Notes: generated by a model not told the origin, from the letters alone. Shown: positions 19,484 to 24,550, numbered from the stretch's first letter. The stretch: DNA of 64,000 nt from Candidatus Multivoradales bacterium (GCA_965223855.1 CBDCXM010000009.1:896001-960000), one strand, 5' to 3'. Translations and numbers: made by a program.

Positions 19484-20809
19484 TCAGCCGACGGGATCGC
19501 CGGAAAGCCAGTCGCTGAGGAGCTCGAGGACCCGCGGGTCGCGGTAGGGCGCGCTGTGGCGCAGCGACGCGTCGTCACCGCCGTCGGGCGCCAGTAGCGA
19601 CACGCTCCACTCGCCGGGAGGGGTCGCCTCGATCGAGACGTCGAGAAAGAGATTGCCGAAGGCGATTCGAGGGCCGAACGGGACGATCAGGACCAGGGAG
19701 AGGAGAAGAGCGAGCGGGAAGGCGAGCGCGCTTCCCAGATAGACCAGGAGTGTCGAGACGATCGGGGTGGCCCGCAGGAGAAGGAACGCAACCCCGCCGA
19801 GTCCCACGGTCTTGCCGACGTCGACGGTCGTTCCGGCGTCGAGCCACCAGGCGAGCCCCCAGATCGGCAAGCCGATCGCCGCGGCCACTGCCGCGACAAC
19901 GGTGGCTCGCGACGCACCGCGCGAGCTGTGGCGCTCGGCTGCCGCCGTCTCCATCGCGCCGAGGCGAGCGAAGATCCGGGCGGTGAGCGCGGCGGCGAAC
20001 TGGCCGGCGAGAAGGCCGGCGGAAGCCTCGTCGCCGACCATCCGCACGATCCGCAGCTTGCCCTGGAGCCGGTCGGCGGCGAGGTCGAGGCGGGTGACGA
20101 GCCTGCCGAGTCGCTGGTGCCACCAGGCGAGCGATGCGAGGGCGGCACCGAAACCAACCATGGCGATCAGCGCCGTCCACCATGGGGCGTCGAGGTGATC
20201 GAGCACGCCGTAGGCGACGAGCAGCAGGGGCAGCGGTGCGAGGATCGCGAAGCGGGCCGGGCCACCGACCAGATCGCGGCGGGAGAGTTGCAGGAAGGGA
20301 GTGGCGAGGCAGGTCACGGTCGAGACCCGGTCGCGGAGTGGCGCGAGCGCTCCGGCAACCTCGCGCTGCTCGTCGTCGGCGAGTCCTTCCGAGCGTCTGC
20401 GTAGCGAGGCATAGCGCTCGTCGTTGAGCGCGTAGAGAGCAACGTTCCCGCCGTGCGAGTGAGCGATCAGATGGTGTTGCGCCGTCGGCCATCGATCGAG
20501 CTGCTCGGCGAGCACCGCCCGAAGCTCGTTGGCGGCACGGAGCCGTGCCTCGAGGGTGTTGCCGCCGGACCAGACGAGACGGCGCAGCGCGGTGCTCTGT
20601 GATCCCAGCTTCTCGACGACGGAGCGCGAGAGGGTGGACTCGGCAGCCGTCCACGCCGCGGATCGGGCGAAGGTCCCGTGAATCAGGACGACGACATGCT
20701 CGGGTCGTTCGCATTCGAGGAGCTCTTCGACCTTGCACGGACGCCGTTCGATCCACAGGCTCCACAGCACGAGCGCGACGACCGCCACGGCGGCGATGGC
20801 AGCGAACAT
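19484..20809 (-). CDS. Membrane-embedded alpha/beta hydrolase (lipase/phospholipase-like)
   Basis: 'LIHGTFA' oxyanion motif, nucleophile elbow 'AHSHGG', 'LATPF', 'GDEA', C-terminal 'LRHSAPY'; several TM segments; GGAG before ATG 20809. Confidence 0.8.
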   Translation of the reverse strand: MFAAIAAVAVVALVLWSLWIERRPCKVEELLECERPEHVVVLIHGTFARSAAWTAAESTLSRSVVEKLGSQSTALRRLVWSGGNTLEARLRAANELRAVLAEQLDRWPTAQHHLIAHSHGGNVALYALNDERYASLRRRSEGLADDEQREVAGALAPLRDRVSTVTCLATPFLQLSRRDLVGGPARFAILAPLPLLLVAYGVLDHLDAPWWTALIAMVGFGAALASLAWWHQRLGRLVTRLDLAADRLQGKLRIVRMVGDEASAGLLAGQFAAALTARIFARLGAMETAAAERHSSRGASRATVVAAVAAAIGLPIWGLAWWLDAGTTVDVGKTVGLGGVAFLLLRATPIVSTLLVYLGSALAFPLALLLSLVLIVPFGPRIAFGNLFLDVSIEATPPGEWSVSLLAPDGGDDASLRHSAPYRDPRVLELLSDWLSGDPVG

Positions 20810-20829
20810 CGACACTCCGGTCTCGCGTT

Positions 20830-21777
20830 CTACTGTTTGTAGTTGCGCAGGAAGTACTCGAAGCCGCTCTGCACCCGGCCGAGCGCGTCGGTGGCGTCGT
20901 TGAGACTCGACTCGGTCTCGGCGGTGCTGGCGTCGAAGTTCCGCAGCGCTCCCTCGACCGCCTGAGTCGAGCCGTCGATCTCGTCCCGCAACCCGGCGAG
21001 CTTCTGCGCGACGGTCTGCGAGGCCTCGGCGCGCGCGGAGAGCGCCTGCTCGTGGAGCGTCTCCGCCTCGGTGCGGGTGTTGTCGAAGTTGGTCTGCGAA
21101 TTCTCGATCGCCGCCTCGAGAGTCTCGATCACCAGCTGCTCGATCTCGCCCGCCTTGGCGGCGAAGTCCTCGCTCGCCTCGGTCACGCGCCCCGAGGCTT
21201 CGCTCTCGAGGCTCGCGGCGACCTGATCGCCTTGCCCCTCGAGAGTCCCGGTCGCTTCGTCGAGCTCGGTGAGCAGGGTCTCGCCGTACTGCTCGCGGGC
21301 GCTGTCGAGCGCCTGGGTGGCGCCGGCCGCCAGGCCGCTGAACTGCTCCGCGAGTGCGGTCTGCACTGTCTCGATCTCGTCCAACTGGGCTCTCACCGCG
21401 GCCGCCGCTTCCTCGAGGGCGCTTCCCTCGTCGCCCAGCGCTGCGACTTCGGCCTCCGCCTGTCCTGCGACGGTCTGTTCCAGAGTCGACAGCGCGTTCG
21501 CCGCGTCGGACAGGGCGCCGAGCGCCTGCTCGAGCTCGGTCGCCAGCCGACTCTGCTCTCCGGCCAGCCAGGTGACGAGGCCGGTCGCCTCCTCTTCCAG
21601 CTTCGCCCAGCCGTCCTCGACCTGCGCGGTCGCCTCCTCCGAGGCGGTCTCGAGCGCGTCGAAGGTCGCGTCGATCTCGGTCGCCGCGCCCTCGATCTCC
21701 TCGAGTGCATTGACCAGCTCGCCGCTCGAGGCGGAGAGCTCATCGACGAGCTGGTCGGCCTGGTCCGCACCGGCCAT
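20830..21777 (-). CDS. Hypothetical acidic Ala/Glu-rich all-helical protein (4th of 4; 315 aa)
   Basis: ATG at 21777 overlaps the upstream TGA; amphipathic helical composition; no signal peptide. Confidence 0.8.
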   Translation of the reverse strand: MAGADQADQLVDELSASSGELVNALEEIEGAATEIDATFDALETASEEATAQVEDGWAKLEEEATGLVTWLAGEQSRLATELEQALGALSDAANALSTLEQTVAGQAEAEVAALGDEGSALEEAAAAVRAQLDEIETVQTALAEQFSGLAAGATQALDSAREQYGETLLTELDEATGTLEGQGDQVAASLESEASGRVTEASEDFAAKAGEIEQLVIETLEAAIENSQTNFDNTRTEAETLHEQALSARAEASQTVAQKLAGLRDEIDGSTQAVEGALRNFDASTAETESSLNDATDALGRVQSGFEYFLRNYKQ

Positions 21778-22697: not shown

Positions 22698-22703
22698 GAC
22701 CCT

Positions 22704-23654
22704 CTACTCCCCCACCGCGTCGATCCGCTGTTTGGCCTGATGGCCGCGGTCGATGTCGTCGGCCGAGCCCGAGAAGTCGGCCGTTCGGCTGCTCCACCCC
22801 TCTGCGGCGTCGAGCACCTTGCCGAGCCCGTCCTCCGCCGCGACCATCGCGTCGCCCTGCAGCCGCTCACACGGCTCTCGAAGTTGCGTGTCGGCCGTCT
22901 CGATCAGGCTCTGAACGACCCGGCCGGCCGCCGTGGTGATCCCCTCGAGCAACGACTGGCGGGCGGCGTCGGCCTCTCCACCCCAGGTCGAGTAGGTCTC
23001 ACCGAGAGCCGAGGAGAGCCCTTCCGCCTCGCTCTCGCACTCGCCCCCGACTCCCTCGAGTTCGCTGCCGGCGGACTGCCCGGCTTCGGCCAGCGCCTCC
23101 GCTCCGTCGGAGGCGAGCGTAGAGGCCGCTGAGTCGAGTGCGGCTGCCGCCGTCTCCAGGGCGCTCGCGACCTCCTGCCCGGTTGCCTCGCTGCGTGAGG
23201 AGGCGCCCGACAGCGCGGCGGAGAGTGAAGAGGCATGAGTCGCGTCGGCCGCCGCGGCGTCGGTCAGCGATGCCGTGACCTGCTCGAAACTCTGCCCGAG
23301 CCGGGTCGTGAGCTGCGCCAGCGCCTCGGTCTCGGTGCTGACGGTCGTCGCGGCGCCGTCGGCGGCCGCCTCGACTTTGCCGCTCCCCTCCGAGCAGCCG
23401 GCGTCCCCCTCCTGCGCCGCGGCGGTGGCGCCTTCGAGACTGCCGACCGTCTCGGGCAGCGCGGCATCGAGGGAACCGTCGAGCTCGGCGACGGCATCGG
23501 AGAAGGCGGTGAACCCTTCGAGCACCTGCTGCTGGGACTCTTCGGCCCAGGTGAGGAGGCTGTCGACCAGCGCGAGGCTCTTCTCGTTGCGGGCGCGCGC
23601 GCTGGCGAACATCCGGGTCAGCTTGGCCAGGCCGGAGGGGTTGACGTCGCTCAT
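22704..23654 (-). CDS. Hypothetical acidic Ala/Ser/Glu-rich all-helical protein (2nd of 4; 316 aa)
   Basis: ATGA overlap with the upstream gene; composition. Confidence 0.8.
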   Translation of the reverse strand: MSDVNPSGLAKLTRMFASARARNEKSLALVDSLLTWAEESQQQVLEGFTAFSDAVAELDGSLDAALPETVGSLEGATAAAQEGDAGCSEGSGKVEAAADGAATTVSTETEALAQLTTRLGQSFEQVTASLTDAAAADATHASSLSAALSGASSRSEATGQEVASALETAAAALDSAASTLASDGAEALAEAGQSAGSELEGVGGECESEAEGLSSALGETYSTWGGEADAARQSLLEGITTAAGRVVQSLIETADTQLREPCERLQGDAMVAAEDGLGKVLDAAEGWSSRTADFSGSADDIDRGHQAKQRIDAVGE

Positions 23655-24550
23655 CCGGGCACCTTCGAGGCCGTGCTGCTGATCTCGGACTGCAGGCCGC
23701 CGATCGCTTCGGCGAGCCCCTCCGTGAGTTCCGTGACTCTGGGTGCCGCCGACTGCAGCGACTGAAGCTGTTGCTCCTGCACGGCGCCGACGCCGTCGAG
23801 GACCTCGCCGACGGTCTCGAGCTCTCCATCGAGTGCCTCCGGAGCGTCGACTGCCAGCCCCTGCCAGAGCCCCTCCATGACCTCGTTGTGCTGCTCGACC
23901 ATGGCGTTGCCCGCGTCGATCAGCGATCTCCCGAGGTGGCGCACCAGCTCACCACCGGCGCTGGCGAACTCGGTGCTGTGCTGTGCCCCCTCGCGGGCGA
24001 CATCGGACAGCGCCTCGGCCCACGAGGATCGAGCCGTCAGCAGGCTCTGGTGAGCCGTGCCGGCCGTCTCGACGGCGGCGGAGAGGGCGGACTGCAACGC
24101 CTCGATTCCGGCGTTGCCTTCGGCGACGGCTGCCTGTGCGGCGGCAGCGACCTCGGTTGCCGCCTCCGCTGCTGCCGACAACGAGCTGCCGCGCTCCTCG
24201 CCGAGCTCCCGGCGGGCCTCGGAGAGCTGCTCGAGTTGCGGCGTCAGCTCCTCGAGGGACGTGCGGGCCGTCGCCGCCAGGGCGGAAGCCTCCGCGGTCA
24301 GCTCCGACAGCGCTTCGTGAAGGCCGCCCGTCGCCGTCTCGCCGGCGGCGCGAGCGGCCGCGACCTGCTCGAGCGCCTGCTCGATCGACGCCTGCGCGGT
24401 CTGCGCTTCGGCTTCGATCGCCGCGACGAGATCCTCGCTGCGGCCCAGAAGCTCCTGGACCGGAGCGCGGGCCGCTTCGCAGCGCTGCTCGAGCTCCCGG
24501 CAGCTCGAGACGGCCTCCTCCAACCGGTCGATGATGACGGGCTGTGCCAT
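23651..24550 (-). CDS. Hypothetical acidic Ala/Glu-rich all-helical protein (1st of 4; 299 aa)
   Basis: TAGAAT -10-like box 12 nt upstream of ATG; coiled-coil/apolipoprotein-like composition. Confidence 0.8.
   Translation of the reverse strand: MAQPVIIDRLEEAVSSCRELEQRCEAARAPVQELLGRSEDLVAAIEAEAQTAQASIEQALEQVAAARAAGETATGGLHEALSELTAEASALAATARTSLEELTPQLEQLSEARRELGEERGSSLSAAAEAATEVAAAAQAAVAEGNAGIEALQSALSAAVETAGTAHQSLLTARSSWAEALSDVAREGAQHSTEFASAGGELVRHLGRSLIDAGNAMVEQHNEVMEGLWQGLAVDAPEALDGELETVGEVLDGVGAVQEQQLQSLQSAAPRVTELTEGLAEAIGGLQSEISSTASKVPG

Follow-up and report, generated by a model that had tools for sequence, protein, structure and literature searches.

In passages of Zhang 2012 (PMC3482391), polymorphic toxins are the C-terminal domains of long proteins that carry a known trafficking domain. 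In type VII secretion systems (T7SSs), helical-bundle proteins encoded just 5' of polymorphic toxins serve as targeting factors (PMC10801868), and PT-TG is often found in toxins of T7SSs (passages of PMC13483458). The locus described here lies in a 64,000-nucleotide (nt) stretch of a Candidatus Multivoradales genome (G000:C9:896001-960000; "the window" denotes this whole stretch) and consists of four genes, p1 to p4, referred to as the quartet. Related quartets in other genomes are followed at several loci by unrelated toxins that share a short N-terminal tag. The quartet is tentatively interpreted, at slightly less than an even chance, as the conserved helical core of a new polymorphic-toxin trafficking module in the Acidobacteriota. 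The host metagenome-assembled genome (MAG), a member of the Thermoanaerobaculia in this phylum, is 4.52 Mb long, has 70% GC, and is 92% complete.

The quartet loci resemble polymorphic toxin systems in that unrelated, named toxin domains occupy one slot of a conserved context, with an Imm-family gene in one locus and several loci per genome. They differ in that the toxins are free-standing and small, with a tag of ∼20 residues, and that the context is four separate helical proteins of ∼300 amino acids (aa) and of no known family; a trafficking mode of this type is absent from the passages of PMC3482391. With the LXG/Lap and WXG100 proteins of T7SSb they share helical-bundle proteins directly 5' of variable toxins and a proposed pre-export complex, although the T7SSb proteins are only ∼100 to 150 aa long and number two or three rather than four, the quartet toxins have no LXG, the genomes have no EssC, and there is no family match above cut-off. 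LXG/Lap of T7SSb, and adaptor-dependent effectors in general, are the closest analogies. A literature search, with supplements and subscription journals outside its coverage, yielded no earlier account of the quartet or its tag, or of this gene set.

The four genes are tightly packed and transcribed in the same direction (Table 1), with a 4-nt overlap between p1 and p2, a 6-nt gap between p2 and p3, and a 1-nt TGATG overlap between p3 and p4. Together with a hydrolase gene that follows p4, they have a GC content at third codon positions (GC3) of 0.84 to 0.91 (0.86 for p1), which marks the open reading frames (ORFs) as coding rather than as antisense artefacts of high genomic GC. The proteins contain 20 to 21% Ala, 10 to 15% Glu, and 0.3 to 1.6% Lys, with net charges of −31 to −53, the latter for p4. 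None has a transmembrane (TM)-like segment (maximum Kyte-Doolittle 19-residue means of 0.62 to 1.11, against a TM threshold of 1.6), none matches a Pfam, NCBIfam, or PADLOC model above cut-off, and all are entirely helical as predicted by AlphaFold2 (AF2). Residues F123, Y221, P261-C262, and W287 of p2 are invariant among its seven closest relatives. An initial annotation of the window, made from the sequence alone, had described acidic, A/E-rich, Lys-poor proteins without TM segments or a family, and this description agrees with the composition, hydropathy, and Pfam and NCBIfam results; its coordinates, strand, lengths, and junctions are all reproduced by the ORF calls, and the amphipathic character it proposed is seen as a 3.6-residue periodicity in p1 to p4 (z of 5 to 16 versus shuffled sequences).

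The quartet is rare, and it is one conserved unit of the Acidobacteriota with a fixed gene order and fixed sizes, often in several copies. A search with p4 alone matched 2 of 40 relatives (G001 and G002), both of the window's genus, and at these loci p1 to p4 lie in the same order with 40 to 48% identity (44 to 47% for the p1 orthologs). A p2 profile searched against 1.84 billion representative proteins gave just 29 matches at E≤0.001, among them four clear p2 orthologs and ∼12 "group 2" proteins of ∼322 aa that carry the same invariant Phe and Tyr as p2. A further four-gene cluster came to light through a hit in G670, a genome from a different class of the phylum. An alignment of group 2 proteins then found 37 matches in 14 of 301 sampled genomes of the class of G670, with 13 of the positive genomes among the 59 of a single family and up to six loci per genome. 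Sequence was fetched for 33 of these places, with genes called by GC3 and classified with family hidden Markov models (HMMs). Of 39 sequence pieces, which come from two classes, 24 have the complete order p1-p2-p3-p4, with sizes of ∼297, ∼323, ∼310, and ∼303 aa, respectively. Partial quartets account for 11 further pieces, owing to contig ends or to an antisense ORF chosen by the gene caller; of the remainder, two have no family call, one has the order p1-p4-p2-p3, and one has a lone p2-like gene. Tandem quartets are present on two contigs.

The conservation is also evident in leave-genus-out HMMs, built without the window's genus (for p1, only from loci of the other class), to which p1, p2, p3, and p4 of the window score 102.6, 58.0, 55.0, and 94.6 bits, compared with 7.8 to 26.1 bits for reversed sequences (7.8 for reversed p1) and less than 3 bits for shuffled ones. 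An alignment of seven p2 sequences matched none of 400 other genomes at class level and 2 of 400 at phylum level, with only five candidates per genome scored, so that distant copies may have been missed. A word-indexed homolog search with p4 returned only itself, a metagenome scan with the p3 alignment returned nothing, and a scan with group 2 returned one contig of 1.9 kb with p1 and the start of p2 only. The initial annotation had proposed an undescribed system, and for the four genes this stands, because they form one unit of fixed order and size that belongs to no known family, with the order kept in 24 of the 39 pieces.

The genes following p4 are varied, and their products are mostly singletons in clustering. 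Five loci code for recognized toxin families in this position (Table 1), and none is found at the window's own cluster; three more proteins are Gly-rich or hydrophobic and without a family. At L059 the gene 3' of the Gln_amidase gene matches Imm35 at 27.2 bits (cut-off, 27.5), and the ATLF-like gene has a conserved 73-aa partner in two loci; no immunity-gene candidate was recognized at the other loci. The 169-aa gene that follows the AHH gene in G002 and G001 was considered as an immunity gene and rejected, as its product carries the tag itself.

The tag is a common N-terminus of ∼20 residues on 10 otherwise unrelated proteins encoded after p4, with a consensus of approximately M-S-G-P-x-P-x-P-L-I-x-x-P-x-W-[LV], after which a Gly-rich stretch begins. 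Behind 9 of 31 p4 genes the ORF carries this tag (eight identified by regular expression and one by eye), as it does in G001, and several of these ORFs begin 14 to 38 nt after p4. The tagged proteins are 152 to 275 aa long and share just this N-terminus, and Pfam identifies no trafficking domain (PAAR, LXG, TPS, Rhs, etc.) on them. When each tag in turn is left out of the tag HMM, 9 of 10 rank 1 to 4 of 271 N-termini and one ranks 36, and the three best-scoring "background" sequences, the 169-aa protein among them, are further tagged proteins of quartet loci. The p4 genes without a tagged ORF behind them include three followed by another quartet and four with too little sequence; others are followed by nuo genes, by a 539- to 571-aa tetratricopeptide repeat (TPR) protein (four orthologous loci), or by genes on the opposite strand.

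In the window's genome, the tag HMM ranks one ORF first among 58,492 candidate N-termini (25.4 bits, E 5e-5; the next-best score is 14.1 bits), and this ORF lies in the window itself (Table 1), between an outer-membrane protein (OMP)-like gene and a Ser/Thr kinase gene. Its product matches no Pfam or NCBIfam family and, judged by its N-terminus, is the likeliest cargo in the window. The ORF is part of a co-oriented run (49815-54794, minus strand) coding for an ECF sigma factor, a zf-HC2 anti-sigma factor, the OMP-like protein (299 aa, with a signal peptide), the tagged ORF, and the kinase (686 aa). Two further genes of the same genome have tag-like N-termini: C9:2400564-2401343 (plus strand, 259 aa; 14.1 bits, E 0.2) and C9:2381717-2382439 (plus strand, 240 aa; 12.9 bits, E 0.5), the latter with an HExxH-like motif, HEAMPGH.

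Table 1. Genes of the window's cluster, the tagged ORF of the window, and toxin families encoded after p4 at other quartet loci
Feature	Position in window	Strand	Description	Evidence
p1	23651-24550	−	299 aa, acidic, all-helical; first gene of the quartet	ORF and translation
p2	22704-23654	−	316 aa, acidic, all-helical	
p3	21777-22697	−	306 aa, acidic, all-helical; ends conserved, middle variable	
p4	20830-21777	−	315 aa, all-helical; most acidic of the four; aromatic C-terminus conserved	
Hydrolase	19484-20815	−	Polytopic, alpha/beta-hydrolase-like; 443 aa from GTG, 441 aa from ATG at 20809	
Tagged ORF	52145-52603	−	152 aa, TTG start; candidate orphan cargo	Best match of tag HMM
Gene after p4, G002			AHH nuclease	42 bits (Pfam, above cut-off)
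Gene after p4, G670			Gln_deamidase_2	98.4 bits (Pfam, above cut-off)
Gene after p4, L055			ATLF-like metallopeptidase	51.1 bits (Pfam, above cut-off)
Gene after p4, L059			Gln_amidase, "papain fold toxin 1"	34.5 bits (Pfam, above cut-off)
Gene after p4, L081			PT-TG	45.5 bits (Pfam, above cut-off)

The window's genome has a second quartet 1.9 Mb away (C9:2806281-2815174), whose genes score 115.8, 114.3, 150.5, and 119.7 bits to p1, p2, p3, and p4, in order. Its p1 is the C-terminus of a 1,987-aa acidic repeat protein (C9:2806281-2812244; L091:1281-7244). This long protein has dozens of acidic 10-residue repeats (EFELSELKEE-like) and repeats of ∼20 residues (WPTELVHGIF...), no signal peptide, and a p1-family domain in its last ∼290 residues; two metagenomic proteins of ∼2,400 aa each, P0013 and P0018, also end in quartet-like helical regions. 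The second quartet is flanked by an FHA protein and a ∼550-aa protein, each of which is present in one copy per genome, beside one "core" quartet. The window cluster is a satellite quartet, whereas the genome's core copy lies at C9:2.80-2.82 Mb.

The FHA protein is encoded 5' of p1 in six loci that are orthologous between genomes, with its C-terminal ∼70 residues conserved, and the same domain forms the C-terminus of a 638-aa membrane protein with three FHA domains, encoded beside the second quartet. The ∼550-aa protein is encoded divergently from core quartets and has two C-terminal hydrophobic segments; a homolog adjoins the second quartet (E 6e-55). The ESM Atlas groups it with bacterial dynamin clusters (0.92 to 0.96). 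Cyanobacterial clusters of ∼300 aa and ∼530 aa are also flagged by the Atlas. It matches no Pfam family, and so neither Dynamin_N nor MMR_HSR1, has no FHA domain, and has no P-loop (GxxxxGK[ST]) in any of five homologs. Of the same 301 genomes, 14 carry the quartet, 15 the FHA C-terminal domain, and 13 the ∼550-aa protein, and 11 carry all three; as the genomes are kin, these counts overstate independence. The co-occurring dynamin-like protein may link the quartet to membranes and is taken as a lead only.

Two other genes recur at core loci. The gene after p4 in L064, L072, L073, and L075 (core loci of G894, G670, G822, and G916) codes for a 492- to 571-aa protein with C-terminal TPR repeats and N-terminal ∼450 residues of no assigned family; its loci also hold the FHA, DUF481, and ∼550-aa genes, and the protein is a possible further member of the core. 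A DUF481 outer-membrane-type protein (105 bits) is encoded two genes 5' of p1 in L063, L064, L066, L072, and L073, and its gene is kept between the ∼550-aa and FHA genes in core loci. The DUF481 homolog in the window's genome (C9:2487763-2488530, 30% identity) is near neither quartet.

A conserved module, a variable toxin slot, and a tag shared by the clients together fit the logic of polymorphic-toxin trafficking, with the quartet as carrier or adaptor, and at the level of genes the quartet and the tagged toxins are associated. In the proposed mechanism, p1 to p4 would form a hetero-oligomeric bundle of helices, which would bind the tag and pass the toxins on for export or delivery. This last stage would rely on the single-copy membrane components and may be controlled by Ser/Thr phosphorylation through FHA, PP2C, and kinase proteins; phospho-Thr control is suggested by the FHA proteins, by the kinase encoded beside the tagged ORF, and by a PP2C (SpoIIE-GAF) gene of one locus (locus B). 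A broader proposal, which is doubtful, is that the quartet, the tag, the FHA protein, and the P-loop-less dynamin-like protein constitute a new export or toxin-delivery pathway of diderms, independent of machines of the type I to type IX secretion systems. The helical carrier would then load not only the tagged toxins but also the giant p1-fused acidic passenger at the second locus, with release perhaps occurring via dynamin-driven membrane vesicles. LeoA of Escherichia coli has been connected with the vesicular release of a toxin, and LeoABC/Eleos systems are similar in that a ∼550-aa membrane-anchored protein with dynamin-like features lies beside the core quartet. They differ in that the ∼550-aa protein lacks Dynamin_N, MMR_HSR1, and a P-loop and gives a LeoBC match of only E 0.0097 (13 bits), and neither Leo nor Eleos is known to include helical quartets or tagged toxins.

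Several observations weigh against the trafficking interpretation. About two-thirds of the p4 genes (21 of 31) are not followed by a tagged ORF, and neither a tagged toxin nor an immunity gene adjoins the window's own cluster. As the 169-aa protein is itself tagged, cognate immunity is documented in one locus only, and marginally. The co-occurrence of the quartet with its two partners is nearly all within one family (f60), and the dynamin-like label of the ∼550-aa protein derives from language-model features only, with neither a Pfam hit nor a P-loop. No export machine was recognized for the set, to which neither a signal peptide nor a pore, an ATPase, or a component of the outer membrane could be shown to belong, and tag binding, assembly of p1 to p4, and export are proposed steps.

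Short motifs shared between pairs of the four proteins had suggested ancient paralogy in the initial annotation, and this was not confirmed. Pairwise BLASTP among the four proteins gave nothing significant, and hhalign gave 11% for p1/p3, 2% for p1/p4, and 73% over 82 columns for p2/p3. Cross-family HMM scores of 10.7 to 35.8 bits do not rise above the reversed controls (7.8 to 26.1 bits), and common descent of the four families is thus not shown. Neither sequence nor fold searches place p1 to p4 in a known family. With an alignment of 42 sequences, AF2 predicts long helices in p2 at residues 6-81, 86-183, and 185-315 (pLDDT 68.4, pTM 0.29); with a three-sequence alignment the model is unusable (pLDDT 50.5). 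Foldseek with the p2 model (pTM 0.29), a comparison that the initial annotation had looked to, gave nothing at E≤0.001, the top match being 6zvr (Vipp1/PspA; E 1.3, probability 0.16). A wide VIA-align search reached a best Z of 9.8, matching generic long helices and falling below the noise level for unrelated helical models. PDB sequence searches with p2 and p4 profiles gave generic helical matches only, with Vipp1 at E 0.11, and p4 scores 33.2 bits to LA_3659/SpiroCoCo_N, for which the cut-offs are 36 (LA_3659_fam) and 75 (SpiroCoCo_N).

The hydrolase encoded behind p4 (spacing of 14 nt from its GTG start or 20 nt from its ATG start) is a lineage-specific, co-oriented, untagged neighbor and not a conserved partner of the quartet. 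It has an N-terminal TM segment and five to six TM-like segments in all, an AHSHG nucleophile elbow is readable in its sequence, and its match to DUF676 (19.1 bits; cut-off, 20.3) covers residues 38-134 only. It has no tag, no hydrolase of this kind is present at any other fetched quartet locus, and its one close homolog, in G001 (50% identity), is on a different contig from the quartet. The initial annotation had placed it with the quartet in a "4+1" unit, and this is dropped because the hydrolase co-occurs with none of the other fetched quartet loci, an outcome that the initial annotation had itself named as refuting. The G001 homolog (L086, G001:C52) lies directly behind an ORF with, in our reading, a type IV pilin/prepilin-like N-terminus (…FSLIELLVVVAIIG…), a hint that the hydrolase functions in another context.

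Divergent from p1 in the window is a DUF900 alpha/beta-hydrolase gene (24591-25784, plus strand; E 2e-46; probable start at 24672) with, as read from the sequence, a lipoprotein-like signal after an internal Met. It has two paralogs elsewhere on C9 (50 to 53% identity), and, like the p4-proximal hydrolase gene, it is missing from the orthologous quartet loci of G001 and G002. Elsewhere in the window (13578-15616, plus strand), a TRAP transporter DctM is split into two adjoining ORFs of 368 and 311 aa, which match the N- and C-terminal halves of PF06808, reflecting either a frameshift or a natural split.

Swappable effectors at one position, including nucleases, proteases, and membrane-active and lipase-like proteins, are also typical of defense systems, and the quartet could belong to an intracellular conflict or anti-phage system. 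Sensing or scaffolding would then fall to the quartet, the dynamin-like protein, and the FHA proteins, and the tagged proteins would act within the producing cell as abortive-infection effectors. The varied slot fits this account, as do the dynamin-like appearance of the ∼550-aa protein, its faint LeoBC match, and the lack of secretion markers in the quartet genomes (G000, G002, G670, G800, G806, and G820; 92 to 99% complete): TssC, which marks type VI secretion systems (T6SSs), is found in none of the six, the type III secretion system (T3SS) and flagellar marker FHIPEP in none of five, and a multi-domain FtsK ATPase of the EssC/EccC type in none of the six, each of which has one FtsK_SpoIIIE protein in a frame of 757 to 818 aa. 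PADLOC-DB 2.0 includes partial matches of p4 to LmuB (25.8 bits, residues 13-148) and ZorA (23.2 bits). However, it contains no full-length match to p1 to p4, and these partial matches, like the others of 12 to 23 bits (ZorA and JetC), are weak and lie in generic coiled-coil regions. The Imm35-like protein has a hydrophobic, signal-like N-terminus, as would fit a toxin that meets the periplasm, up to six quartets per genome would be unusual for defense, and PT-TG, AHH, ATLF, Gln_amidase, and Imm35 are polymorphic-toxin families (Pfam; passages of PMC3482391). Defense is regarded as unlikely. A diverged type VII-like machine with the quartet as its substrate or targeting set (WXG100/LXG-Lap- or PE/PPE-like) is highly unlikely. 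The position of helical-bundle targeting factors ahead of polymorphic toxins in T7SSs (PMC10801868) and PT-TG in one cargo are in its favor, together with LapD2 among the VIA matches (Z 8.6) and a weak match of p2 residues 193-256 to WXG100 (E 0.006 to 0.018; 15.7 bits to PF06013 with a cut-off of 27.3, and 16.8 bits to TIGR03930 with a cut-off of 44.85). This match is nevertheless below cut-off, as are those of p4 (12.1 and 12.5 bits), the best PF06013 match in the window's genome is 19 bits, and the putative W-x-G Trp of p2 is not kept in G002. Moreover, p1 to p4 are three times the size of WXG100 proteins, and the single FtsK per genome is of housekeeping size. The hosts are also Acidobacteriota, which are diderm bacteria.

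The two remaining alternatives place the function in the quartet itself. A membrane-remodeling or cytoskeletal hetero-polymer of the PspA/ESCRT-III, phasin, or apolipoprotein kind, acting with the dynamin-like protein and with toxins merely adjacent, is closest to what the initial annotation favored and is distinctly unlikely. PspA, Vipp1, ESCRT-III, apolipoproteins, and ApoLp-III are, like the quartet proteins, soluble, amphipathic, and helical, with 200 to 300 aa, and they supply the top matches, which are insignificant. The 3.6-residue periodicity, the long helical hairpins of the AF2 model, the Vipp1/PspA entries heading the Foldseek results, the association with a dynamin-like membrane protein, and the many loci without a toxin are all compatible with remodeling, and sub-threshold matches to ApoLp-III and apolipoproteins recur in all family members (in the window, at best 23.5 bits for p4 to apolipoprotein A1/A4/E, cut-off 90, and 10.9 bits to ApoLp-III, cut-off 36.3). 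Against this, the best Foldseek match is insignificant, the best VIA score falls below the level expected for unrelated helical models, no PspA_IM30 or phasin match is present in p1 to p4 by Pfam, and the quartet organization and tagged cargo are without counterpart in those families; a tag shared by 10 unrelated proteins and spacings of 14 to 38 nt would be left unexplained. Least probable, by far, is a multi-component alpha-helical pore-forming toxin (ClyA/Hbl/Nhe/XaxAB-like), either as the weapon itself or as a translocon through which the tagged toxins would pass. The presence in one operon of several helical proteins with similar lengths, and IpaB translocator fragments among the VIA matches (Z 8.3 to 8.6), recall such toxins, as do weak matches of Bacillus_HBL to p1 (E 0.19, 11.9 bits; cut-off, 29.1) and to the p4 ortholog of G670 (E 0.0072) and of alpha-xenorhabdolysin subunit A (alph_xenorhab_A) to p3 (E 0.015, 14.6 bits; cut-off, 125). 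Yet all of these are below cut-off or within noise, the strongly negative net charges are unfavorable for membrane insertion, and, with hydropathy far below the TM threshold, the hydrophobic hairpin or tongue that the ClyA/Hbl-like option of the initial annotation requires is lacking. Among the options raised there, a carrier for an effector comes closest to the trafficking interpretation preferred here, with small tagged toxins rather than the hydrolase as the effectors; the PspA/ESCRT-III and apolipoprotein options find no significant support in Pfam or the fold searches.

Acidobacteriota are abundant in soils and sediments, and their weapons are almost unknown. The system proposed here can be tested through four parts: the quartet, a client tag that can be sought genome-wide, the toxin clients, and the two single-copy partners. 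The quartet also illustrates that "low-complexity" helical ORFs in MAGs of high GC content can represent genuine conserved families. Should the quartet act as a carrier, it would provide a new trafficking route for polymorphic toxins in bacteria without T3SS, T6SS, or T7SS markers, and the tag could be used for cargo discovery and perhaps for heterologous export.

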